Shown: positions 14,024-58,855 of the stretch, piece by piece
Layout: every line of letters starts with the position of its first letter
How positions within the stretch are numbered: the first letter of the stretch is position 1
DNA from: Endomicrobiales bacterium
GTDB lineage: Bacteria; Elusimicrobiota; Endomicrobiia; Endomicrobiales; JALOBY01
Length of the DNA: 64,000 nt
Reading direction: 5' to 3'
Assembly (NCBI GenBank): GCA_963796955.1
Contig: CAWCNJ010000004.1
Coordinates: 365,624 to 429,623 of the forward strand
The notes under the pieces: model-generated
Seen by the model: only the letters and a program-made list of their open reading frames with translations
The model's database searches: none
What the model was told of the DNA's origin: nothing
Made by a program: the position numbers and the translations under genes

Positions 14024-14432
14024 AAAGTTTCTCAGGCTTTTCGACGCGAATGTGAACCGATGCCGGGAAGGGTTGAGGGTGCTGGAAGACAGCGCCCGGT
14101 TCGTAATGAACAAGCCGGCGCTCTACAAGAAGTTAAGATCTCTGCGCCATAGTGTTGATAGATTGACGAGAAATATTTATCCTGAAATGCTGGCGGTCAG
14201 GGATTCTGTTTCGGACAGCGGTCGTTCGATGAAAGAAAATAGCAAAAGATCCGGACTTGGAGCGGTCCTTGCGGCGAATTTTCGCAGGGTTGAAGAATCT
14301 CTCCGGGTCCTTGAAGAGTATGGAAAGATAGTTTGTCCTGATTCCGCAAAAGAATTTAAAGCGATACGATACGCCGCATATACCATGGAAAAAAAGGTCA
14401 GCCTTGAAAACGAAAGCTCTGACGTTGGTTGA
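14010..14432 (+). CDS. Stand-alone ThiD2-like domain (N-terminal domain of cyanobacterial-type ThiE)
   Basis: DANVNRCREGLRVLED and ANFRRVEESLRVLEE...FKAIRY..Y..EK repeats; adjacent to thiC. Confidence 0.8.
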   Translation: MVPNKKFLRLFDANVNRCREGLRVLEDSARFVMNKPALYKKLRSLRHSVDRLTRNIYPEMLAVRDSVSDSGRSMKENSKRSGLGAVLAANFRRVEESLRVLEEYGKIVCPDSAKEFKAIRYAAYTMEKKVSLENESSDVG

Positions 14433-15678
14433 AGCAGCAAAAGCACATAAACAACACCCATCAATAACAGCGGCCGCAAAAAGCGAGAAGCTTTCCGCCT
14501 CATTTATCAGCAAGGGTGTGGCGGATGGTACCATCGTTATACCGCGCAACCGCAACCGCAAATTAAAACGCGTCGTCGGCGTCGGCAAGGGCCTTGTTTC
14601 CAAGGTCAACGCCAATATCGGCTCATCACCAAAACATATTTCAATAGAAAAAGAACGCCAAAAGCTGCAGGCGGCCATCTCTGCGGGCGCTGATGCTGTT
14701 ATGGACCTTTCCACCGGCGGCGACTTGAAAAAGATACGCCGTATGGTGCTGGACGAATGCCCCGTGCAGGTCGGCACCGTGCCGCTGTACCAGGTTTCCT
14801 GCGAGACGATGAAACGCGGGAAAGGTCTTTCGGACCTTGACGGTGAACATTTATTCGACGTTATAGAGCAGCAGGCCGAAGAGGGCGTTGATTTTGTGAC
14901 CGTGCACTGCGGCATAACGAAGCGTACCGTGCAGGCATTGCACAGCCGCAAGCGCCTGGTCGGTGTTGTCAGCCGCGGCGGCTCTATGCTCAGCAAATGG
15001 ATACTGGCTACCAAAAAAGAAAATCCGCTCTTTGAGCAGTTCGACCGGCTGCTGGCCATAGCAAAAAAACATGACATGACCTTAAGCCTCGGCGACGGAC
15101 TGCGCCCGGGCTGCCTCGCGGATGCTAATGATGCCGGACAGCTTTCAGAATTGTCGGTGCTTGGCGATCTTGTGCTGCGCTGCCGTAAGGCCGGTGTGCA
15201 GGCTATGGTAGAAGGCCCCGGTCACATGCAGCTGAATTATATCGCCGACCATGTTAAAGCTGCCAAGAAAGTAATGCACGGCGCGCCGTATTATCTTCTT
15301 GGGCCACTGGTATGCGATGTCGCTGCCGGCTACGATCATATAACCGGTGCCATAGGCGGCGCTATAGCCGGCGCCGCTGGAGCCGACTTTTTGTGTTACG
15401 TTACACCCGCGGAGCACCTGCGGCTGCCTAACGCCGACGATGTTTATCAGGGAGTGATCGCCAGCCGTATAGCGGGACACGCTGCCGACATTGTTAAATA
15501 TGGACAGAAAGCCCGTCAGTGGGATGATACCTTTTCAAAACACCGCAAGGCCTTCAACTGGAAAGCCATGGGAAAGCTGGCTTTGGACCCGATAAAATTC
15601 AATAAAGAAAAAGAAGTTATAGTAGGCGAAGGCGCGGAAGTTTGTACGATGTGCGGCGAATTTTGCGCGATGAAGTAA
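14404..15678 (+). CDS. thiC: Phosphomethylpyrimidine synthase
   Basis: KVNANIG, MDLSTGG, SRGGS, EGPGH, CTMCGEFCA. Confidence 0.96.
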   Translation: MKTKALTLVEAAKAHKQHPSITAAAKSEKLSASFISKGVADGTIVIPRNRNRKLKRVVGVGKGLVSKVNANIGSSPKHISIEKERQKLQAAISAGADAVMDLSTGGDLKKIRRMVLDECPVQVGTVPLYQVSCETMKRGKGLSDLDGEHLFDVIEQQAEEGVDFVTVHCGITKRTVQALHSRKRLVGVVSRGGSMLSKWILATKKENPLFEQFDRLLAIAKKHDMTLSLGDGLRPGCLADANDAGQLSELSVLGDLVLRCRKAGVQAMVEGPGHMQLNYIADHVKAAKKVMHGAPYYLLGPLVCDVAAGYDHITGAIGGAIAGAAGADFLCYVTPAEHLRLPNADDVYQGVIASRIAGHAADIVKYGQKARQWDDTFSKHRKAFNWKAMGKLALDPIKFNKEKEVIVGEGAEVCTMCGEFCAMK

Positions 15679-15689
15679 ATTGAAACGGT

Positions 15690-15814
15690 CGTACATTTCG
15701 GCCATCTTTCGGATTCACACTTTCAGAACGGCCTCCTGAGACTGCGTCTCATAGCGGAGGCCTCTAGAACCAACACACTCTGAAAGTGTTCACCCGAAAA
15801 TAGCCTCGTGTACG
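15690..15814 (-). repeat. ~120-nt structured palindromic repeat, copy L-A (reverse orientation)
   Basis: Its reverse complement aligns end to end with 15854-15980 and 23483-23602; central TGAGAC-GCA-GTCTCA hairpin. Confidence 0.9.
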
Positions 15815-15853
15815 CCGCATTAAGAACAACTGCTGTTCTGTCAACGAAAAACC

Positions 15854-15980
15854 GCTATGTACGAGGGTATTTTCGGGGAGCATTTTCAGAGTGTGTCGCC
15901 TCTCGAGGCCCTCGTCATGAGACGCAGTCTCAGAGGGCCGTTCTGAAAATGCGAGTCGAAAGATACCCGAGATGCATAGC
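15854..15980 (+). repeat. ~120-nt structured palindromic repeat, copy L-B
   Basis: Nested stems gctatgta/tgcatagc, gggtattttcg/cgaaagataccc, gcattttcag/ctgaaaatgc, ggccctc/gagggcc, tgagac/gtctca. Confidence 0.92.
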
Positions 15981-15997
15981 ACCTTAAGGGAAAAAGT

Positions 15998-16627
15998 ATG
16001 AATATAGTGTGTTTAGACCTTGAAGGTGTGTTAGTGCCTGAGATATGGATAGCTTTCTCTGAAAAAACAGGGATTGCCTCCTTGCGGGCGACGACCAGGG
16101 ACATCCCTGATTATGATGTTCTTATGAGACAGCGTTTAAAGATACTGAAAGAAAATAACCTTAAGCTGAAAGATATTCAGGACGTGATCGGTACGTTGAA
16201 GCCGCTTGATGGGGCGCTGGATTTCATTAACTGGCTTAGAGAGCGCTTTCAGGTGGCGATATTATCAGATACATTCGATGAATTTGCTTTGCCGTTAATG
16301 CGCCAGCTTGGCTACCCGATGTTGTTGTGCCATCGACTGGAGATCGACAGTAACGGTATGGTAGCAGGTTACTGTCTGAGGCAAAAAGAGGCCAAACGCG
16401 AATCGGTCAAAGCTTTCAAGAGCCTGAAGTACCAGGTGATCGCCGCAGGCGATTCTTATAATGATACGGCTATGCTTTCAGAGGCGCACGCGGGGATACT
16501 GTTTAAACCTCCCCAGAACGTGATAAACGATTTTCCTCAATTTCCGGTAACAAAGAGCTACGCGGAACTGCAGGATACTTTGCTGAAAACTCAAAAACGC
16601 TTAAGTGAGGGTAGCATATGCCTTTAG
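15998..16627 (+). CDS. thrH: Phosphoserine phosphatase / homoserine phosphotransferase (HAD)
   Basis: CLDLEGVLVPEIW, TTRDIPDYDVLM, GDSYNDTAML. Confidence 0.94.
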   Translation: MNIVCLDLEGVLVPEIWIAFSEKTGIASLRATTRDIPDYDVLMRQRLKILKENNLKLKDIQDVIGTLKPLDGALDFINWLRERFQVAILSDTFDEFALPLMRQLGYPMLLCHRLEIDSNGMVAGYCLRQKEAKRESVKAFKSLKYQVIAAGDSYNDTAMLSEAHAGILFKPPQNVINDFPQFPVTKSYAELQDTLLKTQKRLSEGSICL

Positions 16628-17850
16628 TGGTCATGAAGTTCGGTGGTTCATCGGTAGCGAACGCGGAGAAAATTCGCCACGTGGCCGGGCGCGTTATTGC
16701 CAAAAAGAAGGCCGGTAACAAAGTCGTCGTAGTGGTTTCGGCACCAGGCGACATGACCGACGATCTGATAACAATGTCCGAGGGCGTGACGGATTCACCC
16801 GACGAACGTGAGATGGATATGCTGCTCGCCACAGGTGAACAGGTTTCTATAGCGTTGTTGTCCATGGCCATTAAACACATCGGCGGCAAAGCGATATCCC
16901 TTACGGGGCCGCAGGCGGGAATTTTCGCGGATGCCTCTCACACGAGAGCCCGCATTACCAGTATCGTGCCGACAAAGGTGCACCGTGAACTAAAGAAGGG
17001 AAATATAGTCATAGTAGCGGGTTTCCAGGGTTTGAACCCTAATGAAGATATCACGACGCTCGGCCGCGGAGGCTCTGACCTTACCGCTGTCGCGCTCGCC
17101 GCCGCCCTTAAGGCGGACATGTGCGAGATATATACCGACGTTGAGGGCGTTTACACGACCGACCCGCGCGTTGTGCCTGAAGCGAGAAAGATAAATTACA
17201 TTTCCTACGAAGAAATGCTGGAGATGGCGGGCCAGGGCGCGCAGGTAATGCAGGGTCGCAGCGTGGAGGTAGGTAAAAAATACGGGATAGAGATACATGT
17301 ACGTTCCACGTTCTCAGACAACAACGGCACAATAATAACGACAGAAGAGATCGCCCGGAGGAAGAATATGGAAGAAGTCGTCGTTTCATCAATAGCGTTC
17401 GATAAAAATCAGGTTAAGCTCTCTATCGTTGAAGTGCCCGACCGCCCCGGAATAGCCGCCAAGGTGTTCGGCGCGATGGCAAAAGGCAACGTCAACGTAG
17501 ACATGATAGTACAGTCCGCCGCAGCCGACCGCACGAACGACATTTCCTTCACGGTAAACCGCAGCGAGCTGAAAAAAGCCATGCCGATACTTGAAAAAGC
17601 GCAAAAAGAGCTCGGCGCCAAAGAAATACTGAGCGAGGATAAAGTTGCAAAACTCTCTATAATCGGCGTAGGCATGCGCAGCCACCCCGGCGTTGCCGCA
17701 AAAATGTTCGAGACCCTTGCCGATGAAGGCATCAACATAGAGATGATCTCCACCAGCGAGATCAAAGTAGCCTGCGTAGTCCGGGAAGATCAGCTCCACG
17801 ACGCCGTAAAAGCGCTGCATAAGGCCTACGGCCTGGATAAAAAGAAATAA
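16618..17850 (+). CDS. lysC: Aspartate kinase
   Basis: KFGGSSV, TTLGRGGSD, two ACT domains, ISTSEIK. Confidence 0.96.
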   Translation: MPLVVMKFGGSSVANAEKIRHVAGRVIAKKKAGNKVVVVVSAPGDMTDDLITMSEGVTDSPDEREMDMLLATGEQVSIALLSMAIKHIGGKAISLTGPQAGIFADASHTRARITSIVPTKVHRELKKGNIVIVAGFQGLNPNEDITTLGRGGSDLTAVALAAALKADMCEIYTDVEGVYTTDPRVVPEARKINYISYEEMLEMAGQGAQVMQGRSVEVGKKYGIEIHVRSTFSDNNGTIITTEEIARRKNMEEVVVSSIAFDKNQVKLSIVEVPDRPGIAAKVFGAMAKGNVNVDMIVQSAAADRTNDISFTVNRSELKKAMPILEKAQKELGAKEILSEDKVAKLSIIGVGMRSHPGVAAKMFETLADEGINIEMISTSEIKVACVVREDQLHDAVKALHKAYGLDKKK

Positions 17851-17852
17851 GA

Positions 17853-19433
17853 ATGAAAAAAATACAGTTGTTCGATACGACGTTGCGGGATGGTGCACAA
17901 TCCGCGGGGATATCTTTTTCCATCGAAGATAAACTTAAGATCGCGAAGGCGCTTGATGCTTTCGGGATGGATTATATCGAAGGCGGCTGGCCGATGGCCA
18001 GCGCCAATGTTGAACAATTTTTCAGGGAAGCCGCCAAAATTAAATTCGGTCATTCAAAACTGGTGGCATTCGGTTCTACGCGGCATAAGGCGAACAAGGC
18101 GCACAACGATCCGAATTTGAAGTCCATAGTGGCTTCAAAGGTAAAGGTGGCCTGCATATTCGGAAAGACGTGGGCCTTGCACGTGGAACACGCCCTGCAT
18201 TCGACGCTTGACGATAATTTAAAGATGATCTCGGAGAGCGTCGCGTATTTGCGTTCGAAAGGTCTGAAAGTTGTTTATGACGCCGAGCACTTTTTTGACG
18301 GATATCTGGATAACCCTGATTATGCCATGGCGACACTGAAGGCAGCGGCAGACGCCGGCGCCTTTAATTTAACGCTGTGCGAGACCAACGGCGGTAAGCT
18401 GCCGGGCGATATCAGGGAACTTGTTGGTGTAGTGCGCAGGGCTTTTCCTGAAATGGAGCTTGGCATACATACACACAATGATTCCGATTGCGCCATAGCA
18501 AACTCCATAGTCGCCGTTCAGGAAGGCTGCACAATGGTGCAGGGCACCATAAACGGGCTTGGCGAACGCTGTGGTAATGCGAACCTTTGTTCTATAATAC
18601 CGGCGCTGCAGTTAAAACTTGGTTACGGTTGCGTTCCGGAAAAGAAATTGCGCCAGCTTACTGAACTTTCATATTATGTGGATGAGGTTGCCAATATCGT
18701 CCCGAACGACAACCAGCCCTACGTCGGGCGCAATGCCTTCGCTCATAAAGCCGGCATCCATGCTTCCGCAGTAGCGCGCTTGTCAGCGACTTACGAGCAC
18801 CTTGACCCTGCCTGCGTTGGCAATGAACGCAGGATACTGGTCAGCGAGATGGCCGGGAAAAGCAACGTCTCCTTTAAGGCCAAAGAGCTGGATCTGGATT
18901 TTGAGAAAGATCCTCAGGCAGCAAAAAAAATAATAAGCGCCGTAAAAGAAATGGAGAACAACGGTTATCAGTATGAAGACGCCGATGGTTCCTTTGTACT
19001 GCTGACTAAAAAAGCTCTGGGTACCTATATACCAAGCTTTACCCTGAAAGGTTTTCGTGTGAGCGTTGAAAAAGACGACCGGGGTGAAATAGTTACCGAA
19101 GCGACCGTTAAGCTGGATATTAACGGCCATATCGTGCACACCGTCGCCGAAGGGGACGGACCGGTGAACGCGCTGGATAGCTCGCTGCGGAAAGCGCTGC
19201 TTAAATTCTACCCCGAGATCGGCGATGTTTCATTGATGGACTTTAAAGTTCGTGTTATAAATGCAGGCGCCGGTACAGCGGCCAAGGTTCGCGTTTTGAT
19301 AGAATCAAAAGATGCGCACAGCACCTGGGGCACGATCGGCGTATCAGAGAACTTGATAGATGCTTCTTGGAAAGCTTTAGTTGATGCGGTAGAATATAAA
19401 CTTATTGGAAAGAAAATAAAGAAGAAAAAGTAA
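17853..19433 (+). CDS. cimA: Citramalate synthase
   Basis: DTTLRDGAQ, AFGST, YDAEHFFDG, HKAGIH, GDGPVNALD, WGTIGVSEN. Confidence 0.9.
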   Translation: MKKIQLFDTTLRDGAQSAGISFSIEDKLKIAKALDAFGMDYIEGGWPMASANVEQFFREAAKIKFGHSKLVAFGSTRHKANKAHNDPNLKSIVASKVKVACIFGKTWALHVEHALHSTLDDNLKMISESVAYLRSKGLKVVYDAEHFFDGYLDNPDYAMATLKAAADAGAFNLTLCETNGGKLPGDIRELVGVVRRAFPEMELGIHTHNDSDCAIANSIVAVQEGCTMVQGTINGLGERCGNANLCSIIPALQLKLGYGCVPEKKLRQLTELSYYVDEVANIVPNDNQPYVGRNAFAHKAGIHASAVARLSATYEHLDPACVGNERRILVSEMAGKSNVSFKAKELDLDFEKDPQAAKKIISAVKEMENNGYQYEDADGSFVLLTKKALGTYIPSFTLKGFRVSVEKDDRGEIVTEATVKLDINGHIVHTVAEGDGPVNALDSSLRKALLKFYPEIGDVSLMDFKVRVINAGAGTAAKVRVLIESKDAHSTWGTIGVSENLIDASWKALVDAVEYKLIGKKIKKKK

Positions 19434-19448
19434 CAGTTAAAAGTTTTT

Positions 19449-19529
19449 ATCCCGCCACTGTGAGGCACACACGCCGTTGGCGGCGGGATTTCGCGATGAA
19501 GCTATGACAAAAACAAGAGGTGCTACATG
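19449..19529 (+). repeat. Hairpin + RBS leader, copy S2 (before ilvD)
   Basis: Near-identical to 11063-11143; the two core differences are a compensatory T-A to C-G pair. Confidence 0.92.
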
Positions 19530-21176
19530 AGAAGCGATGCAATAAAGAAAGGGGCGCGACGCGCGCCGAACCGCTGCCTTATATATGCTACTGGTATATC
19601 AGATCGTGACATAAACAAACCTTTTATCGGTATAGCCTCATCTTTTACCGACCTTGTTCCGGGCCACATAGGCATGCGCGACCTTGAACGTTATATCGAA
19701 CGCGGCATCGCTGCCGGCGGCGGAGTTCCATTTATTTTCGGAACACCCGCTATCTGCGACGGTATTGCTATGGGCCACGGCGGCATGCACTATTCCCTGC
19801 CCAGCCGCGAACTAATTGCCGACATGGTTGAATCCGTCGCTAACGCTCATGCGCTTGACGGCCTCGTGCTGCTCACCAATTGCGATAAGATAACCCCGGG
19901 CATGTTGATGGCCGCGGGGCGCCTGAATATTCCGACGATCGTCGTTACCGCCGGCCCCATGATGACCGGCCGGTACGGTGGCAAGCGCCGCAGCTTTGTG
20001 CGCGATACCTTCGAAGCTGTCGGCCAGTATCAGGCGGGAAAAATGAAGGGATCCGAGCTGACCGCCCTTGAGATGGCGGCCTGCCCCGGTGCAGGTTCCT
20101 GTCAGGGTCTTTATACGGCTAATACAATGGCCTGCCTGACCGAGACCATGGGTATGTCCTTGCCCGGCTGCGCTACGGCTCTTGCGGTTTCGGCTAAAAA
20201 ACGTCGTATCGCCTATGAATCCGGTATACGCGTTGTTGAGCTCGTAAAAGAAAATATTACTCCAAGAAAGATAATGACGGAAAAAGCCTTTCATAATGCC
20301 GTTATGGTAGACGTTGCACTCGGCGGTTCATCCAATACCGTTCTGCATTTGCCGGCTATCGCCCATGATGCCGGAGTGAAACTTGAACTGGATATGTTCG
20401 ATAAGGTGTCTAAGAAGACTCCACATATAACCTGCATGGAGCCCGCCGGAGACCATTACATGGAAGACCTGGATTACGCGGGCGGCATACCGGCTGTTCT
20501 TTCAGCGCTCAGGGCAAAACTGCTGCCCGGTCTTACGGTGAGCGGGAAAAATATACTTGATATAGCAAAAAATGCAGCCGTGCTTGATACAGATGTTATC
20601 CGCGCGAAGAACCCGTATCATAAAGAAGGCGGCATAGCCATTTTGAAGGGCAATATATCGCCAGATGGCTGCGTAGTGAAGCAAAGCGGAGTCTCGGAAA
20701 AAATGATGGTCTTTACCGGCACTGCCCGCGTTTTTGAATCCGAAGAAACAGCGATGAACGCCATCCTTGGCAAAAAGGTCAAGAAAGGCGATGTCGTGGT
20801 TATACGCTACGAAGGTCCCAAAGGCGGCCCGGGTATGCGCGAGATGCTTGCCCCGACGGCAACGCTGCAGGGCATGGGCCTTGCCGATTCAGTGGCACTT
20901 ATTACTGACGGCAGGTTCTCAGGCGGCACCAGGGGCCCCTGCATAGGCCACATTTCGCCTGAAGCAGCGGAAGGCGGACCTATCGCCGCTATACGCGACG
21001 GAGATATTATTAAAATAGATATACATAAACGCCAGCTGAACGTTGAGCTGACGCCGGATGAGATAAAAGCGCGCATGGCCAAATGGAAGCCGCCTGCGCC
21101 GAAATTCACCACCGGTTATCTGAGCCGATACCAGAAGATGGTAACATCGGCGAGCACGGGCGCCATTGTCAAATAA
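19527..21176 (+). CDS. ilvD: Dihydroxy-acid dehydratase
   Basis: [37 protein letters not shown]. Confidence 0.97.
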
Positions 21177-21239
21177 TACCGTGTTAACGCCGCTGGGCGC
21201 CCACGGGCGCATAAACTCGGATAATTCAGGAGAAGTATA

Positions 21240-22975
21240 ATGATAAAAACAGGAGCAGAGATACTGGTGGAATGCCTTATGCGCGAAGGGTCGGATATGG
21301 TTTTTGGCTATCCGGGCGGCCAGGTTATTCCGATATTTGACGCAATATACCGCAGTAAGCTTAACCTTGTGCTGGTGCGCCATGAACAGGGCGCCGCCCA
21401 TATGGCAGACGGTTTTTCACGCTCGACCGGCAGGGTCGGCGTTTGTCTTGCCACATCAGGGCCGGGCGCCACAAACCTTGTTACCGGTCTTGGCACGGCA
21501 TACATGGATTCTATACCCATGGTCGCTATTACCGGACAGGTGCCGACAACATTGATCGGCAACGATGCTTTTCAGGAAGCCGATACGACGGGCATAACGC
21601 GCCCTGTCACAAAACATAATTTCTTGGTGAAAGATGTTAAGGACCTTGCGCGTACGATTCGCGAGGCTTACCATATCGCTTCCACCGGCAGGCCGGGTCC
21701 CGTCCTGGTGGATATTCCCGCTGACGTTCAGCGGGCTTCTACGGAATTCATTTGGCCAGAAAAAGTCGATATCAGGTCGTATAAACCGAATCTCGTTGGA
21801 CATCCCGGACAGATAAAAAAAGCCGCGCAGGCTATAAACGAGGCGAAACACCCGGTGCTCTACATCGGCGGCGGAGTTATTACGAGCAGTGCGGAAAAAG
21901 AGTTATGCGAGCTGGCTGCCAAGGCTGAGATCCCGGTTACAAATACGTTACTTGGGATCGGCGCTTTTCCGCCTCAGTCGCCGCTTTATCTGGGTATGCC
22001 GGGCATGCACGGAACATATTACGCCAATATGGCCATACAAAATTCCGATCTGATAATTGCCGTAGGCGCCCGTTTGACGACAGGGTTACCGGAAAGGTCT
22101 CGGCTTTCGCACCGAAGGCAAAAATAGTCCATATTGACATCGACCCGACCTCGATCTCTAAAAGTATTGTGGCAAATATTGCCATAGTCGGAGACGCAAA
22201 AGGCATACTGAAAGAATTGCTTAAAGATGTCCGCAACAATAAGCATGCCGAGTGGATGAAGACCATCGCAAATTGGAAAAAGACACATCCTCTCACATAT
22301 AAAGACACAGACAACAGGCTGCGCCCGCAGTACGTGATCGATCAGATCAGCGAACTGACAAAAGGCGAGGCGATAGTCGTTACCGAGGTGGGCCAGCATC
22401 AGATGTGGGCGGCCCAATTCTATAAGGCCAGCAAGCCGAGGAATTTCTTGAGCTCAGGCGGTCTTGGCACCATGGGTTTTGGATTTCCTGCCGGTATAGG
22501 CGCGAAAATGGCCAACCCTAAAGAGCAGGTTATAGTTATAGCGGGAGATGGTTCCATTCAGATGAACATTCAGGAAATGGCTACCGCCGTGCTTAACGGG
22601 GTGAACGTTAAAATAGTTATACTTAACAATTCATATCTTGGCATGGTGCGCCAGTGGCAGGAGATGTTCTGGGACAAGCATTATTCTTCCGTCTGTCTGA
22701 AAAAGAACGACCAGTGCCCGTTCCGCTGCAACAAGCGCACCGCCGACTGCCCGGGCTATATACCGGACTTCGTGAAACTTGCCGAGGCCTACGGGGCGGT
22801 GGGTATGCGTGTCACTGATAAAAAAGATGTAATCTCGTCATTGAAAAAGGCATTAAAACTCAACAAGACGGTTGTTATGGAATTTATAGTTGAAGAGCAG
22901 GAAAATGTTTATCCCATGGTGCCGGCCGGCCACGCTCTGGATGAAATCGTCACTCTTACAACTAACCTCGCATAA
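21240..22975 (+). CDS. ilvB: Acetolactate synthase large subunit (1-nt frameshift at ~22074)
   Basis: [20 protein letters not shown]. Adding one T to TTT at 22073-22075 restores [11 protein letters not shown] and joins the two ORFs. Confidence 0.94.
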
Positions 22976-22986
22976 GGAGAAATAGA

Positions 22987-23481
22987 ATGCGCCATACCAT
23001 ATCAGTCCTGGTGGAAAATAAGTTCGGTGTCCTTGCGCGTATATCAACATTGTTCGCGGCGCGGGGTTTTAACATAGATTCGCTTTCAGTCGGTGAGACG
23101 GAGAATCCTGATGTTTCACGCATGACCATCATCGTTCAGGGCGACGACCGCATACTTGAGCAGGTGGAAAAACAGCTTAATAAACTTGTCGATGTTATCA
23201 AGGTGCTGGACTTTCAACAGACCAAGCACATTGAGCGTGACCTGGCTCTGTTGAAAGTGAAAGTTGATAAACATAACCGCTCTGAGATTATGCAGATGGT
23301 AGATGTCTTTCGGGCGAAGATAATCGATGTCGCCCAGGATTCTATAATAGTAGAGATAACGGGCACGGAAGATAAAGTTGACGCTTTGATGGAGCTGTTC
23401 AAGCCCTTCGGCATCAAAGAAATGTCCCGCACCGGTGTTATCGCCATGGCTAGAGGTTCTAAGCTTGGTAATAGTAAATAG
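22987..23481 (+). CDS. ilvN: Acetolactate synthase small subunit
   Basis: VENKFGVLAR, RGFNIDSL, KQLNKLVDV. Confidence 0.96.
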   Translation: MRHTISVLVENKFGVLARISTLFAARGFNIDSLSVGETENPDVSRMTIIVQGDDRILEQVEKQLNKLVDVIKVLDFQQTKHIERDLALLKVKVDKHNRSEIMQMVDVFRAKIIDVAQDSIIVEITGTEDKVDALMELFKPFGIKEMSRTGVIAMARGSKLGNSK

Positions 23482-23482
23482 A

Positions 23483-23602
23483 GTACACGAGGCTATTTTC
23501 GGTGGGCATTTTCAGTGTGTGTCGCCTCTCGAGGCCCATGTTATGAGACGCAGTCTCTGAGGGTCGTTCTGAAAATGCGAAGCGAAAGATAGCCGAATGT
23601 AC
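23483..23602 (+). repeat. ~120-nt structured palindromic repeat, copy L-C
   Basis: gtaca...tgtac ends; same nested stems as L-A and L-B; begins right after the ilvN stop (23481). Confidence 0.92.
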
Positions 23603-23665: not shown

Positions 23666-24667
23666 ATGGCAGCCAAAATGTATTATGACAAAGATGCGAA
23701 TCTGGATCTTCTTAAGGGTAAAAAAATAGCGGTGATCGGTTACGGTTCACAGGGCCATGCACAGGCGCAGAACCTGCGTGATTCAGGCTTGAACGTTGTT
23801 GTCGGCCAGCGCGAAGGCGGCGACAATTATAAGAAGGCGATCGCCGACGGTTTTAAGCCGGTCAGCGCTGCTGATGCTACCAAGGGTGCGGATTGGATAC
23901 ATATCCTTTTGCCCGACGAAGTACAGGCGGGCATCTGGAGCAATGACATATTGCCGAATTTGAAAAAAGGCGCCACCGTCAGCTTCTCTCATGGTTTTAA
24001 TATCCGTTTCTTCCAGATAGAGCCGCCCGCGGATACGAATGTGGTGATGATAGCTCCCAAGGGCCCCGGCCATCTTGTGCGGCGCCAGTATGAGGAAGGC
24101 AAGGGCGTTCCCTGCCTTATAGCCGTGCATAACGACGCGACCGGTAATGCCAAGGATCTGGCACTTGCGTTCGCCAAAGGCGTCGGCGGAACACGCGGCG
24201 GTGTGCTTGAAACAACGTTCTCTGAAGAGACCGAGACGGATCTTTTCGGCGAGCAGGTGGTACTGTGCGGCGGACTTGTTGAACTGATCCGCGCCGGATT
24301 CGAAACGCTTGTTGAAGCCGGCTACCAGCCTGAGATCGCGTACTTTGAATGTCTGCACGAGTGTAAGCTTATAATAGACCTGATATGGGAAGGCGGCATC
24401 AACCGCATGAATTATTCCGTTTCAGATACCGCGGAATACGGTGAATATAAAGTCGGCAAACGCATTATTACCGACGAGACACGCAAAGAAATGAAGAAAG
24501 TGCTTGCCGATATCGTTTCCGGACAGTTCGCGCACGACTGGCTGCTGGAGAACCGCCTCGGCCGCCCTAAATTCAAACATTCACGCAAAGTCTGCAAGGA
24601 AGAGCCTATTGAAGTCGTCGGCAGCAAGCTGCGCGCGATGATGCCGTGGCTGAATAAGGGGAAATAA
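23666..24667 (+). CDS. ilvC: Ketol-acid reductoisomerase
   Basis: [33 protein letters not shown]. Confidence 0.97.
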
Positions 24668-58783: not shown

Positions 58784-58855
58784 TGGCAGGGGTGAGGATT
58801 GAACTCACGACCAACGGCTTATGAGTCCGCTGCTCTACCACTGAGCTACCCTGCC
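58784..58855 (-). tRNA. tRNA with CAT anticodon (probably elongator Met); CCA not encoded
   Basis: Cloverleaf GGCAGGG/CCCTGCC-A, GCTC/GAGC D-arm, loop CTCATAA, GTTCAATC T-loop. Position 1-72 is paired (not initiator) and C4-G69/C5-G68 of Ile2 are absent. Confidence 0.92.

Follow-up and report, generated by a model that had tools for sequence, protein, structure and literature searches.

A family of rod-shaped repeats in an Endomicrobiales genome and its likely mobility

Introduction

What kind of sequence is the rod-shaped repeat of about 125 bases that resides in three copies (L-A, L-B and L-C) in the operon gaps of an Endomicrobiales bacterium, and how did it get there? The stretch of DNA in question, hereafter termed the window, comprises 64,000 nucleotides (positions 365,624 to 429,623 of contig CAWCNJ010000004.1, assembly GCA_963796955.1) and is part of a source genome (G000) of 2.1 Mb in 11 contigs that is 81% complete and whose gene content is indicative of Elusimicrobiota. 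An initial annotation made from the sequence had interpreted these repeats, which we call rods, as either a mobile element or a new structured noncoding RNA (ncRNA). The first half of this interpretation is supported by empty orthologous sites, a patchy distribution and head-to-head doublets, whereas the second half is disfavoured by our analysis. Collectively, the rods constitute a real and likely mobile family that is previously undescribed in the literature searched; no published description was found in openly readable work. How repeats resembling ERIC, REPIN and TwoAYGGAY move is a largely open question, which the rods make testable by offering filled and empty sites, a sharp invariant core, doublets of strictly one orientation and a candidate recombinant between cores.

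Results

The window copies belong to a larger family

The three copies of the window are found at the coordinates and on the strands that had been assigned to them, and they align with a mean column identity of 84%. All of them are genuine, but their number was an undercount, as G000 holds six copies of this kind (type A) and one of a second kind (type B). A profile of the three window copies retrieved three further type-A copies in the genome (C2:24794, C4:46900 and C4:209750), and a scan of metagenomes provided four matches, three of them genuine (L057, L058 and L059) and one (L060) due to chance. At two of the metagenome loci a second rod is located 20-30 bases upstream on the other strand, with the same arms and a different core, which defines type B; its one copy in G000 resides at C4:288722. 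A covariance model (R1), built from eight type-A copies, scores the three B copies with 42-50 bits (49.9 by cmsearch for the one in G000). Between copies, the arms are 46-89% identical. The L-A/L-B doublet is not an artefact of assembly because a relative has it too: one contig of sequencing run X4 covers 15709-15943 and differs at 28 positions, the contigs of runs X1-X5 representing low-depth relatives.

Each element of the proposed fold recurs in the three-copy alignment, including five nested helices with the four compensatory blocks quoted originally, the CGA / GA(A/G)A loop, a 17-nucleotide bulge in which GTGTGT faces GTT, and GAGAC-GCA-GTCTC at the tip. The conservation of this tip holds for the window copies, but it reads GAAAC-GCA-GTTTC in one copy, is damaged in L059 and is different in type B. 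In L-A, the conserved core consists, in order, of the TTTCAG stem, the 17-nucleotide bulge, a 7-bp stem, the c(GCA)g tip, GTT and CTGAAA. When folded as RNA, the element strands of L-A, L-B and L-C reach energies of -62.4 (z -6.9), -63.1 (z -6.9) and -48.6 kcal/mol (z -3.7), with none of 200 shuffles folding as well, compared to -51.5, -53.2 and -41.7 kcal/mol for the respective opposite strands. The element strand beats its complement in all three copies, with DNA energies giving the same order, in agreement with the predicted strand-specific folding. L-C is the most decayed of the window copies, with three broken pairs.

In Rfam, the only match in the window at gathering score is a tRNA gene (58784-58855, minus strand), and searches of the rod loci by E-value returned sub-threshold matches only, for instance that of a miRNA model to the hairpin of the C2 copy, so that no known family matches the rods in the window or at the rod loci. 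A small reading frame in the A core (MRRSLRGPF) was rejected, as it is truncated in L-C and absent in type B.

Rods occupy gaps that are empty in relatives

The rods are insertions, because the same gene pairs are adjacent and rod-free in relatives and because the rods of L059 occupy a site that is empty in G000. The comparison of empty sites suggested by the initial annotation has found the gap between ilvN and ilvC to be rod-free in five of five relatives (20 bases in G001) and that between thiC and thrH in both of the relatives having thrH. Similarly, no rod is found in the gap before purB in any of four relatives, with purN and purB touching in G001. In L059, a B+A doublet is inserted between the genes for ferredoxin oxidoreductase gamma and an acetyltransferase, a gap that measures 16 bases in G000. 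In L057, a B+A doublet is located between argG and argH, and the corresponding gap in G000 (L063, C9:54805-54840) contains in its approximately 35 bases the two outermost arms only, which reads as a deletion remnant of such a doublet.

In wider searches, the exact A-core pattern was found in none of 400 other genomes of the phylum, and R1 did not detect a match in 121 genomes of the class or in the 39 nearest relatives. These model searches leave room for divergent relatives, because their coarse first filter missed a B copy to which cmsearch assigns 49.9 bits. BLAST gave no match when plasmids were searched with L-B and one type C rod (see below) and phages with the doublet, scans with the A-core pattern returned 22 matches in viral contigs and 17 in genome contigs, none of which scores with the A profile, and a three-part A pattern had no match on viral contigs. 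Two candidates were set aside in this context: a single match of a type C pattern on viral contigs, which falls into coding sequence and is due to chance, and a REP-like palindrome inside an outer stem formed by both halves of the A-core pattern in an Anaerolineae genome (L045:2499-2580), which is present there as a single copy (R1 E 0.05) and probably also a chance match.

The same operon gaps harbour other small repeats in relatives (L084, L085, L093 and L094), which include C-rich hairpins between ilvN and ilvC in G008, heptamer arrays in an operon gap of G004 and, between purN and purB in G004 and G006, a short gene flanked by heptamers.

Close neighbours stand head to head

Among the seven A/B copies of G000, four are oriented in sense and three in antisense direction to their operon. 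The hand-made tally of all 17 rods of this genome counts nine sense and six antisense copies and two in a convergent gap, with eight rods on the locally G-rich strand and nine not, and we have found no replichore bias. This balance implies that the folding strand is a property of the element and not of a transcript or replichore. It also argues against a cis-regulatory RNA, since copies are about equally sense and antisense and placed beside unrelated genes.

The mutual orientation of close copies is strict, as pairs less than 400 bases apart are divergent in six of six cases in G000 and the related metagenome loci (probability by chance 0.0002, provided that the pairs are independent) and in five of five cases among the listed matches of the sister rods described below, for which up to 21 candidates per genome were scored. 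In the window, L-A is the minus-strand partner of such a divergent doublet (Table 1), its 3' end located 8 bases from the stop of thiC, and the 5' ends of L-A and L-B are separated by a 39-base spacer with a small palindrome and no promoter or terminator consensus. From the end of L-B it is 17 bases to the start of the downstream HAD hydrolase gene, which we take to be thrH following the earlier label, and L-C begins 1 base past the stop of ilvN.

Pairing changes and the conserved core

In the alignment of eight A copies, 18 of 40 pairs are changed on both sides and 95% of cells are paired. This number of changed pairs is not reached in any of 500 shuffles or approached by a slid control, with the count ignoring the relatedness of the copies and the structure being drawn from the same sequences. 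In the window copies alone, 13 of 40 pairs vary, 8 with both sides changed and 3 with a broken cell, all of the latter in L-C. In the eight copies, G-T combinations occupy 19 cells at 12 pairs and A-C a single cell (p 0.003 by pair). The core is 88% identical compared to 62% for the arms, with 17 of its 27 unpaired columns showing no variation.

The outer loops are gone in 3 of 11 A/B copies (C2, L59B and partly C4:288722), where the 3' arm is now the complement of the 5' arm, in the same direction every time; in C2 the four remaining arm differences are all of the G-T type. Such block copying of arms accounts for part of the apparent covariation without stepwise selection, and the earlier notion that covariation means selection is thus to be qualified: the pairing changes are real, but some arms were rewritten in one block from the opposite arm. 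The loop-erased copies and the G-T differences in C2 would even be compatible with covariation that is mostly mutational, originating from old palindromic insertions in which template switching rewrites the arms and the exposed strand undergoes C-to-T and A-to-G changes, with little structural selection. We consider this quite improbable, since most copies keep their loops, unpaired core columns are largely invariant while the arms diverge, and single pairs far inside the core are compensated, as in C4:209750, where G-C has become A-T in the tip. Moreover, it would leave the spread of the rods and their doublets unexplained.

Arms and cores are found in different combinations

The two parts of the rod do not stay together. 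L-A with its A core and L57B with its B core carry the same arms, and C4:209750 (A core) and C4:288722 (B core) have their outermost stem in common. L058 appears as a hybrid, which on one side has the C2 copy's left arm with its purB flank and on the other side L-B's right arm with its thrH flank. This arrangement is derived, because the ancestral orders purN-purB and thiC-thrH are known from relatives; as a single metagenome contig of 1.2 kb, it may either represent a core rearrangement or a contig mis-join across the repeat.

The exchange of arms and cores, the GTT kept in all types and the junction of L058 set against the ancestral gene order might also point to sites kept by the host for recombination or protein binding, which would act as attC-like folded single strands in the reshuffling of operons. 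Such a role appears very unlikely, as the L058 junction may be a mis-join, the sites are not conserved between relatives, the GTT lacks an AAC partner and the two tyrosine recombinase genes of G000 are located on rod-free contigs.

Longer sister rods are found in other genomes of the phylum

The folding of 703 intergenic regions has revealed longer rods in G000, which comprise six copies of type C and four of type D (one of them partial), among them three divergent doublets. In their alignment 28 of 46 pairs are changed on both sides, and they show no match in Rfam. A model of these C/D rods (R2) detects relatives in 11 of the 39 nearest genomes. A further model (R3), based on 14 of these relatives (type E) and three C/D copies, matches 31 of 150 genomes of the phylum, with between one and at least 21 sister rods per genome. 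A pattern search finds three in viral contigs of high G+C (L146-L148). The sister rods thus represent an unannotated multi-copy element that is present in about one-fifth of the genomes examined from the phylum as well as in viral contigs.

Rods of types A/B and sister rods have in common an inner loop that ends in GA, followed by a G-C stem and then GTT, as well as a T-run/A-run stem and a GAA(A)TG loop. R2 does not match any A or B copy, R3 shows one match on these copies (E 0.98) and R1 touches the rod at 8 of 26 sister loci (E 0.05-2.5). Alignments of A with E yield a mean score of 49.0, compared to 36.9 +/- 2.9 with a maximum of 42.7 for 60 artificial rods, the null being derived from 3 of 14 targets. 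The statistical link is weak, and kinship of types C, D and E to type A appears likely but unproven.

Among 51 parsed central hairpins of sister rods, which include C/D copies and some that are mis-parsed, 16 have at their tip a c(RNA)g triloop, the middle base of which varies, and two a GNRA or UNCG loop, and no triloop is found on the opposite strand. Type A itself ends in c(GCA)g. Triloops of the c(RNA)g type are stable in DNA, and the tips hence favour DNA over RNA. This observation bears on the ncRNA half of the initial interpretation, in which the RNA form would be selected, with rods transcribed by read-through or in antisense and acting or spreading as RNA in the manner of TwoAYGGAY-type RNA. 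Several features agree with such a role: G-U wobbles reside on one strand, the folding asymmetry is stronger with RNA energies and a U-rich linker together with a 3' hairpin is found in many sister rods. Divergent doublets are also formed by TwoAYGGAY RNAs (bioRxiv 10.64898/2026.09.22.753630). We nevertheless regard an RNA as unlikely, in light of the missing promoter or terminator consensus at L-A/L-B, the absence of a 3' hairpin in types A-D and of a reverse transcriptase match in G000, the mixed orientation of the A/B copies and tips that are triloops of the DNA type rather than RNA tetraloops.

One C/D doublet is located between lexA and a dinB/umuC-type gene. In G006, near-identical D-like rods (L187, L188 and L193) lie inside runs of RHS-like toxin/immunity genes, placed as if they were cassette separators, one of them following a barstar-type gene.

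Table 1. Position of rods and of the genes next to them. Positions refer to the window unless a contig or genome is given.
Feature	Position	Strand	Remarks
thiC	14404..15678	+	Host gene upstream of doublet; PF01964
Rod L-A, type A	15687..15814	-	Antisense to operon; R1 144.7 bits over 15685-15818
Conserved core of L-A	15721..15785	-	Pattern match C4:381344-381408
Spacer between L-A and L-B	15815..15853	.	
Rod L-B, type A	15854..15980	+	Sense; R1 148 bits
Conserved core of L-B	15884..15948	+	Pattern match C4:381507-381571
HAD hydrolase (thrH-like)	15998..16627	+	Host gene downstream of doublet; PF00702, PF12710
ilvN	22987..23481	+	Host gene upstream of L-C; PF10369
Rod L-C, type A	23483..23602	+	Sense
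Conserved core of L-C	23510..23574	+	Pattern match C4:389133-389197
ilvC	23666..24667	+	Host gene downstream of L-C; PF07991, PF01450
Type C/D rods (L074-L079)	G000 C1:2530-2930, C6:94825-95240, C6:97925-98135, C7:74190-74650, C8:29490, C8:230775, C8:457000		10 copies; 180-210 bases
Type E rods (L111-L193)	G001, G002, G004, G006, G008, G038, G065 and others		Often T-rich linker then 14-bp hairpin; no Rfam match

Discussion

A proposed mobile element working as a folded DNA strand

On balance, we lean towards the view that the rods are a non-autonomous mobile element whose working form would be one folded DNA strand, read at its inner loop by a trans-acting enzyme that would favour the flank on the 5' side of a resident rod. 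In this mechanism, a repeat of about 125 bases was inserted between housekeeping genes and its folded single strand would be recognised by an enzyme encoded elsewhere, with the inner stem and its asymmetric loop (...GA, G-stem-C, GTT...) being the likely site of recognition. From the outer arms pairing alone would be required, which would leave them free to drift and to be exchanged between copies. One strand would serve as the working strand whichever way a copy faces, and new copies would likely settle beside a resident rod, at its 5' end and in the opposite strand orientation, which would give rise to head-to-head doublets. A wider version of this proposal, in which types A-E would form one cross-phylum superfamily of single-strand DNA rods, is tentative and in our view rather doubtful; here a recombinase or nuclease would read the inner loop, insert rods head to head, swap cores and arms and be capable of rearranging operons, and transposition would involve neither terminal repeats nor REP ends and leave no target duplication.

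Several observations weigh against the rods being a mobile element of this kind, among them the lack of a linked enzyme. The movers suggested by the initial annotation, including RAYT/Y1 transposases, GIY-YIG nucleases, reverse transcriptases and integron integrases, were searched for in G000 and none is linked to rods. The related statement that the window encodes no mobilising enzyme holds for the five families searched genome-wide, not every window protein having been scanned. In this genome, four Y1 matches at three loci have their own inverted ends, the closest Y1 gene is 22.8 kb away from any rod and a comparison of the Y1 flanks with 20 rods gave a best similarity of E 0.24. The two tyrosine recombinases (PF00589) are encoded on C3 and C5, contigs without rods, there are two GIY-YIG matches, with a lone small GIY-YIG gene that lacks rod flanks, and neither a reverse transcriptase (PF00078) nor IS110 was matched in the 81% of the genome at hand. 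No candidate mover gene is found within 22 kb of a rod in G000, and the flanks of these genes are unlike rods. At 76 rod loci, 321 clustered proteins do not contain a recurring mobile-element family, and Pfam assignments of 37 genes next to rods of G000 and of 51 next to rods of relatives reveal housekeeping genes and a few of defence type and no transposase.

Other points of this kind concern the insertion itself and the nature of the folded strand. The divergence of the arms and the L-A/L-B doublet in common with a relative do not point to a recent jump, and no excision joint was seen in the low-depth contigs of relatives, to which this search was confined. The triloop argument is mostly derived from sister rods, which are weakly tied to type A, and the G-T bias fits the folding of RNA equally well. 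Additionally, inspection by eye did not reveal a constant flanking repeat indicative of target duplication across the 11 A/B copies, and in the sole clean pair of a filled and an empty site the flanks are only 79-82% identical.

Relationship to known repeats

A close analogy is found in REPINs, which are likewise extragenic, non-autonomous and clustered elements of about 90-130 bases with one long hairpin and compensatory changes, depending on RAYT proteins (PMC3116915). They are proposed to move by way of an intermediate that is single-stranded, and contain two invariant REP ends and a variable spacer (PMC3116915). The rods show the reverse pattern, with a conserved middle (core 88%, arms 62%) and variable ends, and they neither contain REP hairpins at their ends nor are any placed beside a Y1 gene. 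By analogy, the rod may work like a REPIN turned inside out. CGTC-tagged REPs are characterized by the CGTC tag, a stem of 8-9 bp, a loop of 4-5 nucleotides and a CCA tail (PMC3733652), whereas CGTCA precedes the tip in four of nine A copies, with a stem of 6 bp, a loop of three nucleotides and no CCA tail.

TwoAYGGAY (RF01731), whose mover is unknown, forms divergent doublets in 68.4% of cases (bioRxiv 10.64898/2026.09.22.753630). Like the rods, with 11 of 11 divergent doublets, it is a multi-copy structured intergenic element of variable copy number, but the rods show no match in Rfam and do not contain the pair of hairpins with AYGGAY loops, the branches or the upstream arrays of 5-6-mers described for this family. 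The array of ncRNAs associated with the UG27 reverse transcriptase is located beside its enzyme and two accessory genes in a prophage (bioRxiv 10.64898/2026.09.22.753630), in contrast to the dispersed copies of the rod in a genome without a PF00078 match.

The ERIC/IRU/RU-1 element of about 127 bases is an imperfect palindrome in operon gaps with TA termini, 7-bp terminal inverted repeats and target duplication (PMC2229807, PMC3184786). It resembles the rods in size, palindromic character and intergenic placement, and E. coli copies fold better on one strand in our calculations (8 of 8). However, R1 does not match at the ERIC position in 13 E. coli loci, and alignments between ERIC and rods have a mean global score of 32.3, which is at background level (29.8 +/- 2.9). 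The rods also differ by copy-specific termini, far more variable arms and the absence of TA ends and of an evident target duplication. bcr1 of the Bacillus cereus group, with about 155 bases, is cruciform-like with two stem-loops and flanked by 5-bp direct repeats (PMC3184786). It shares with the rods positions that are not conserved between strains and a fold kept by compensatory changes, whereas the rod is a single hairpin without an evident constant duplication. CIR repeats, with two arms and a linker (PMC2229807), are unlike the rod. From classical miniature inverted-repeat transposable elements, which depend on DDE transposases, the rods are distinguished by copy-specific outermost stems and the absence of fixed terminal inverted repeats.

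The attC sites of integrons contain AAC/GTT R boxes that are paired at the base and are found together with an integron integrase and cassette genes. In the rod, the GTT resides in the inner loop without an AAC partner, its neighbours are operon genes and the PF00589 genes are on rod-free contigs.

Other repeats and mobile elements of the genome

The Y1 transposases at L052, L053 and L055 carry a C-terminal helix-turn-helix and are bordered by long terminal inverted repeats. One of these Y1 elements splits a gene for a tyrosine recombinase that lies next to a type I restriction gene, another is followed at its right end by an IS3-type element, and 411 bases of a Y1 element recur at the start of C4. 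A structured repeat of 230 bases occurs in three copies in G000 (C3:77425-77658, C5:55703-55936 and C8:455704-455937), and a separate long near-perfect hairpin is located at C1:664-827. Finally, CCCCTC-rich hairpins or arrays of 6-7-mers in inverted pairs are distributed over the same genome (C5:5166, C6:13985, C6:45501, C7:84342-85571, C5:15890, C5:19443, C6:26599 and C4:418672).

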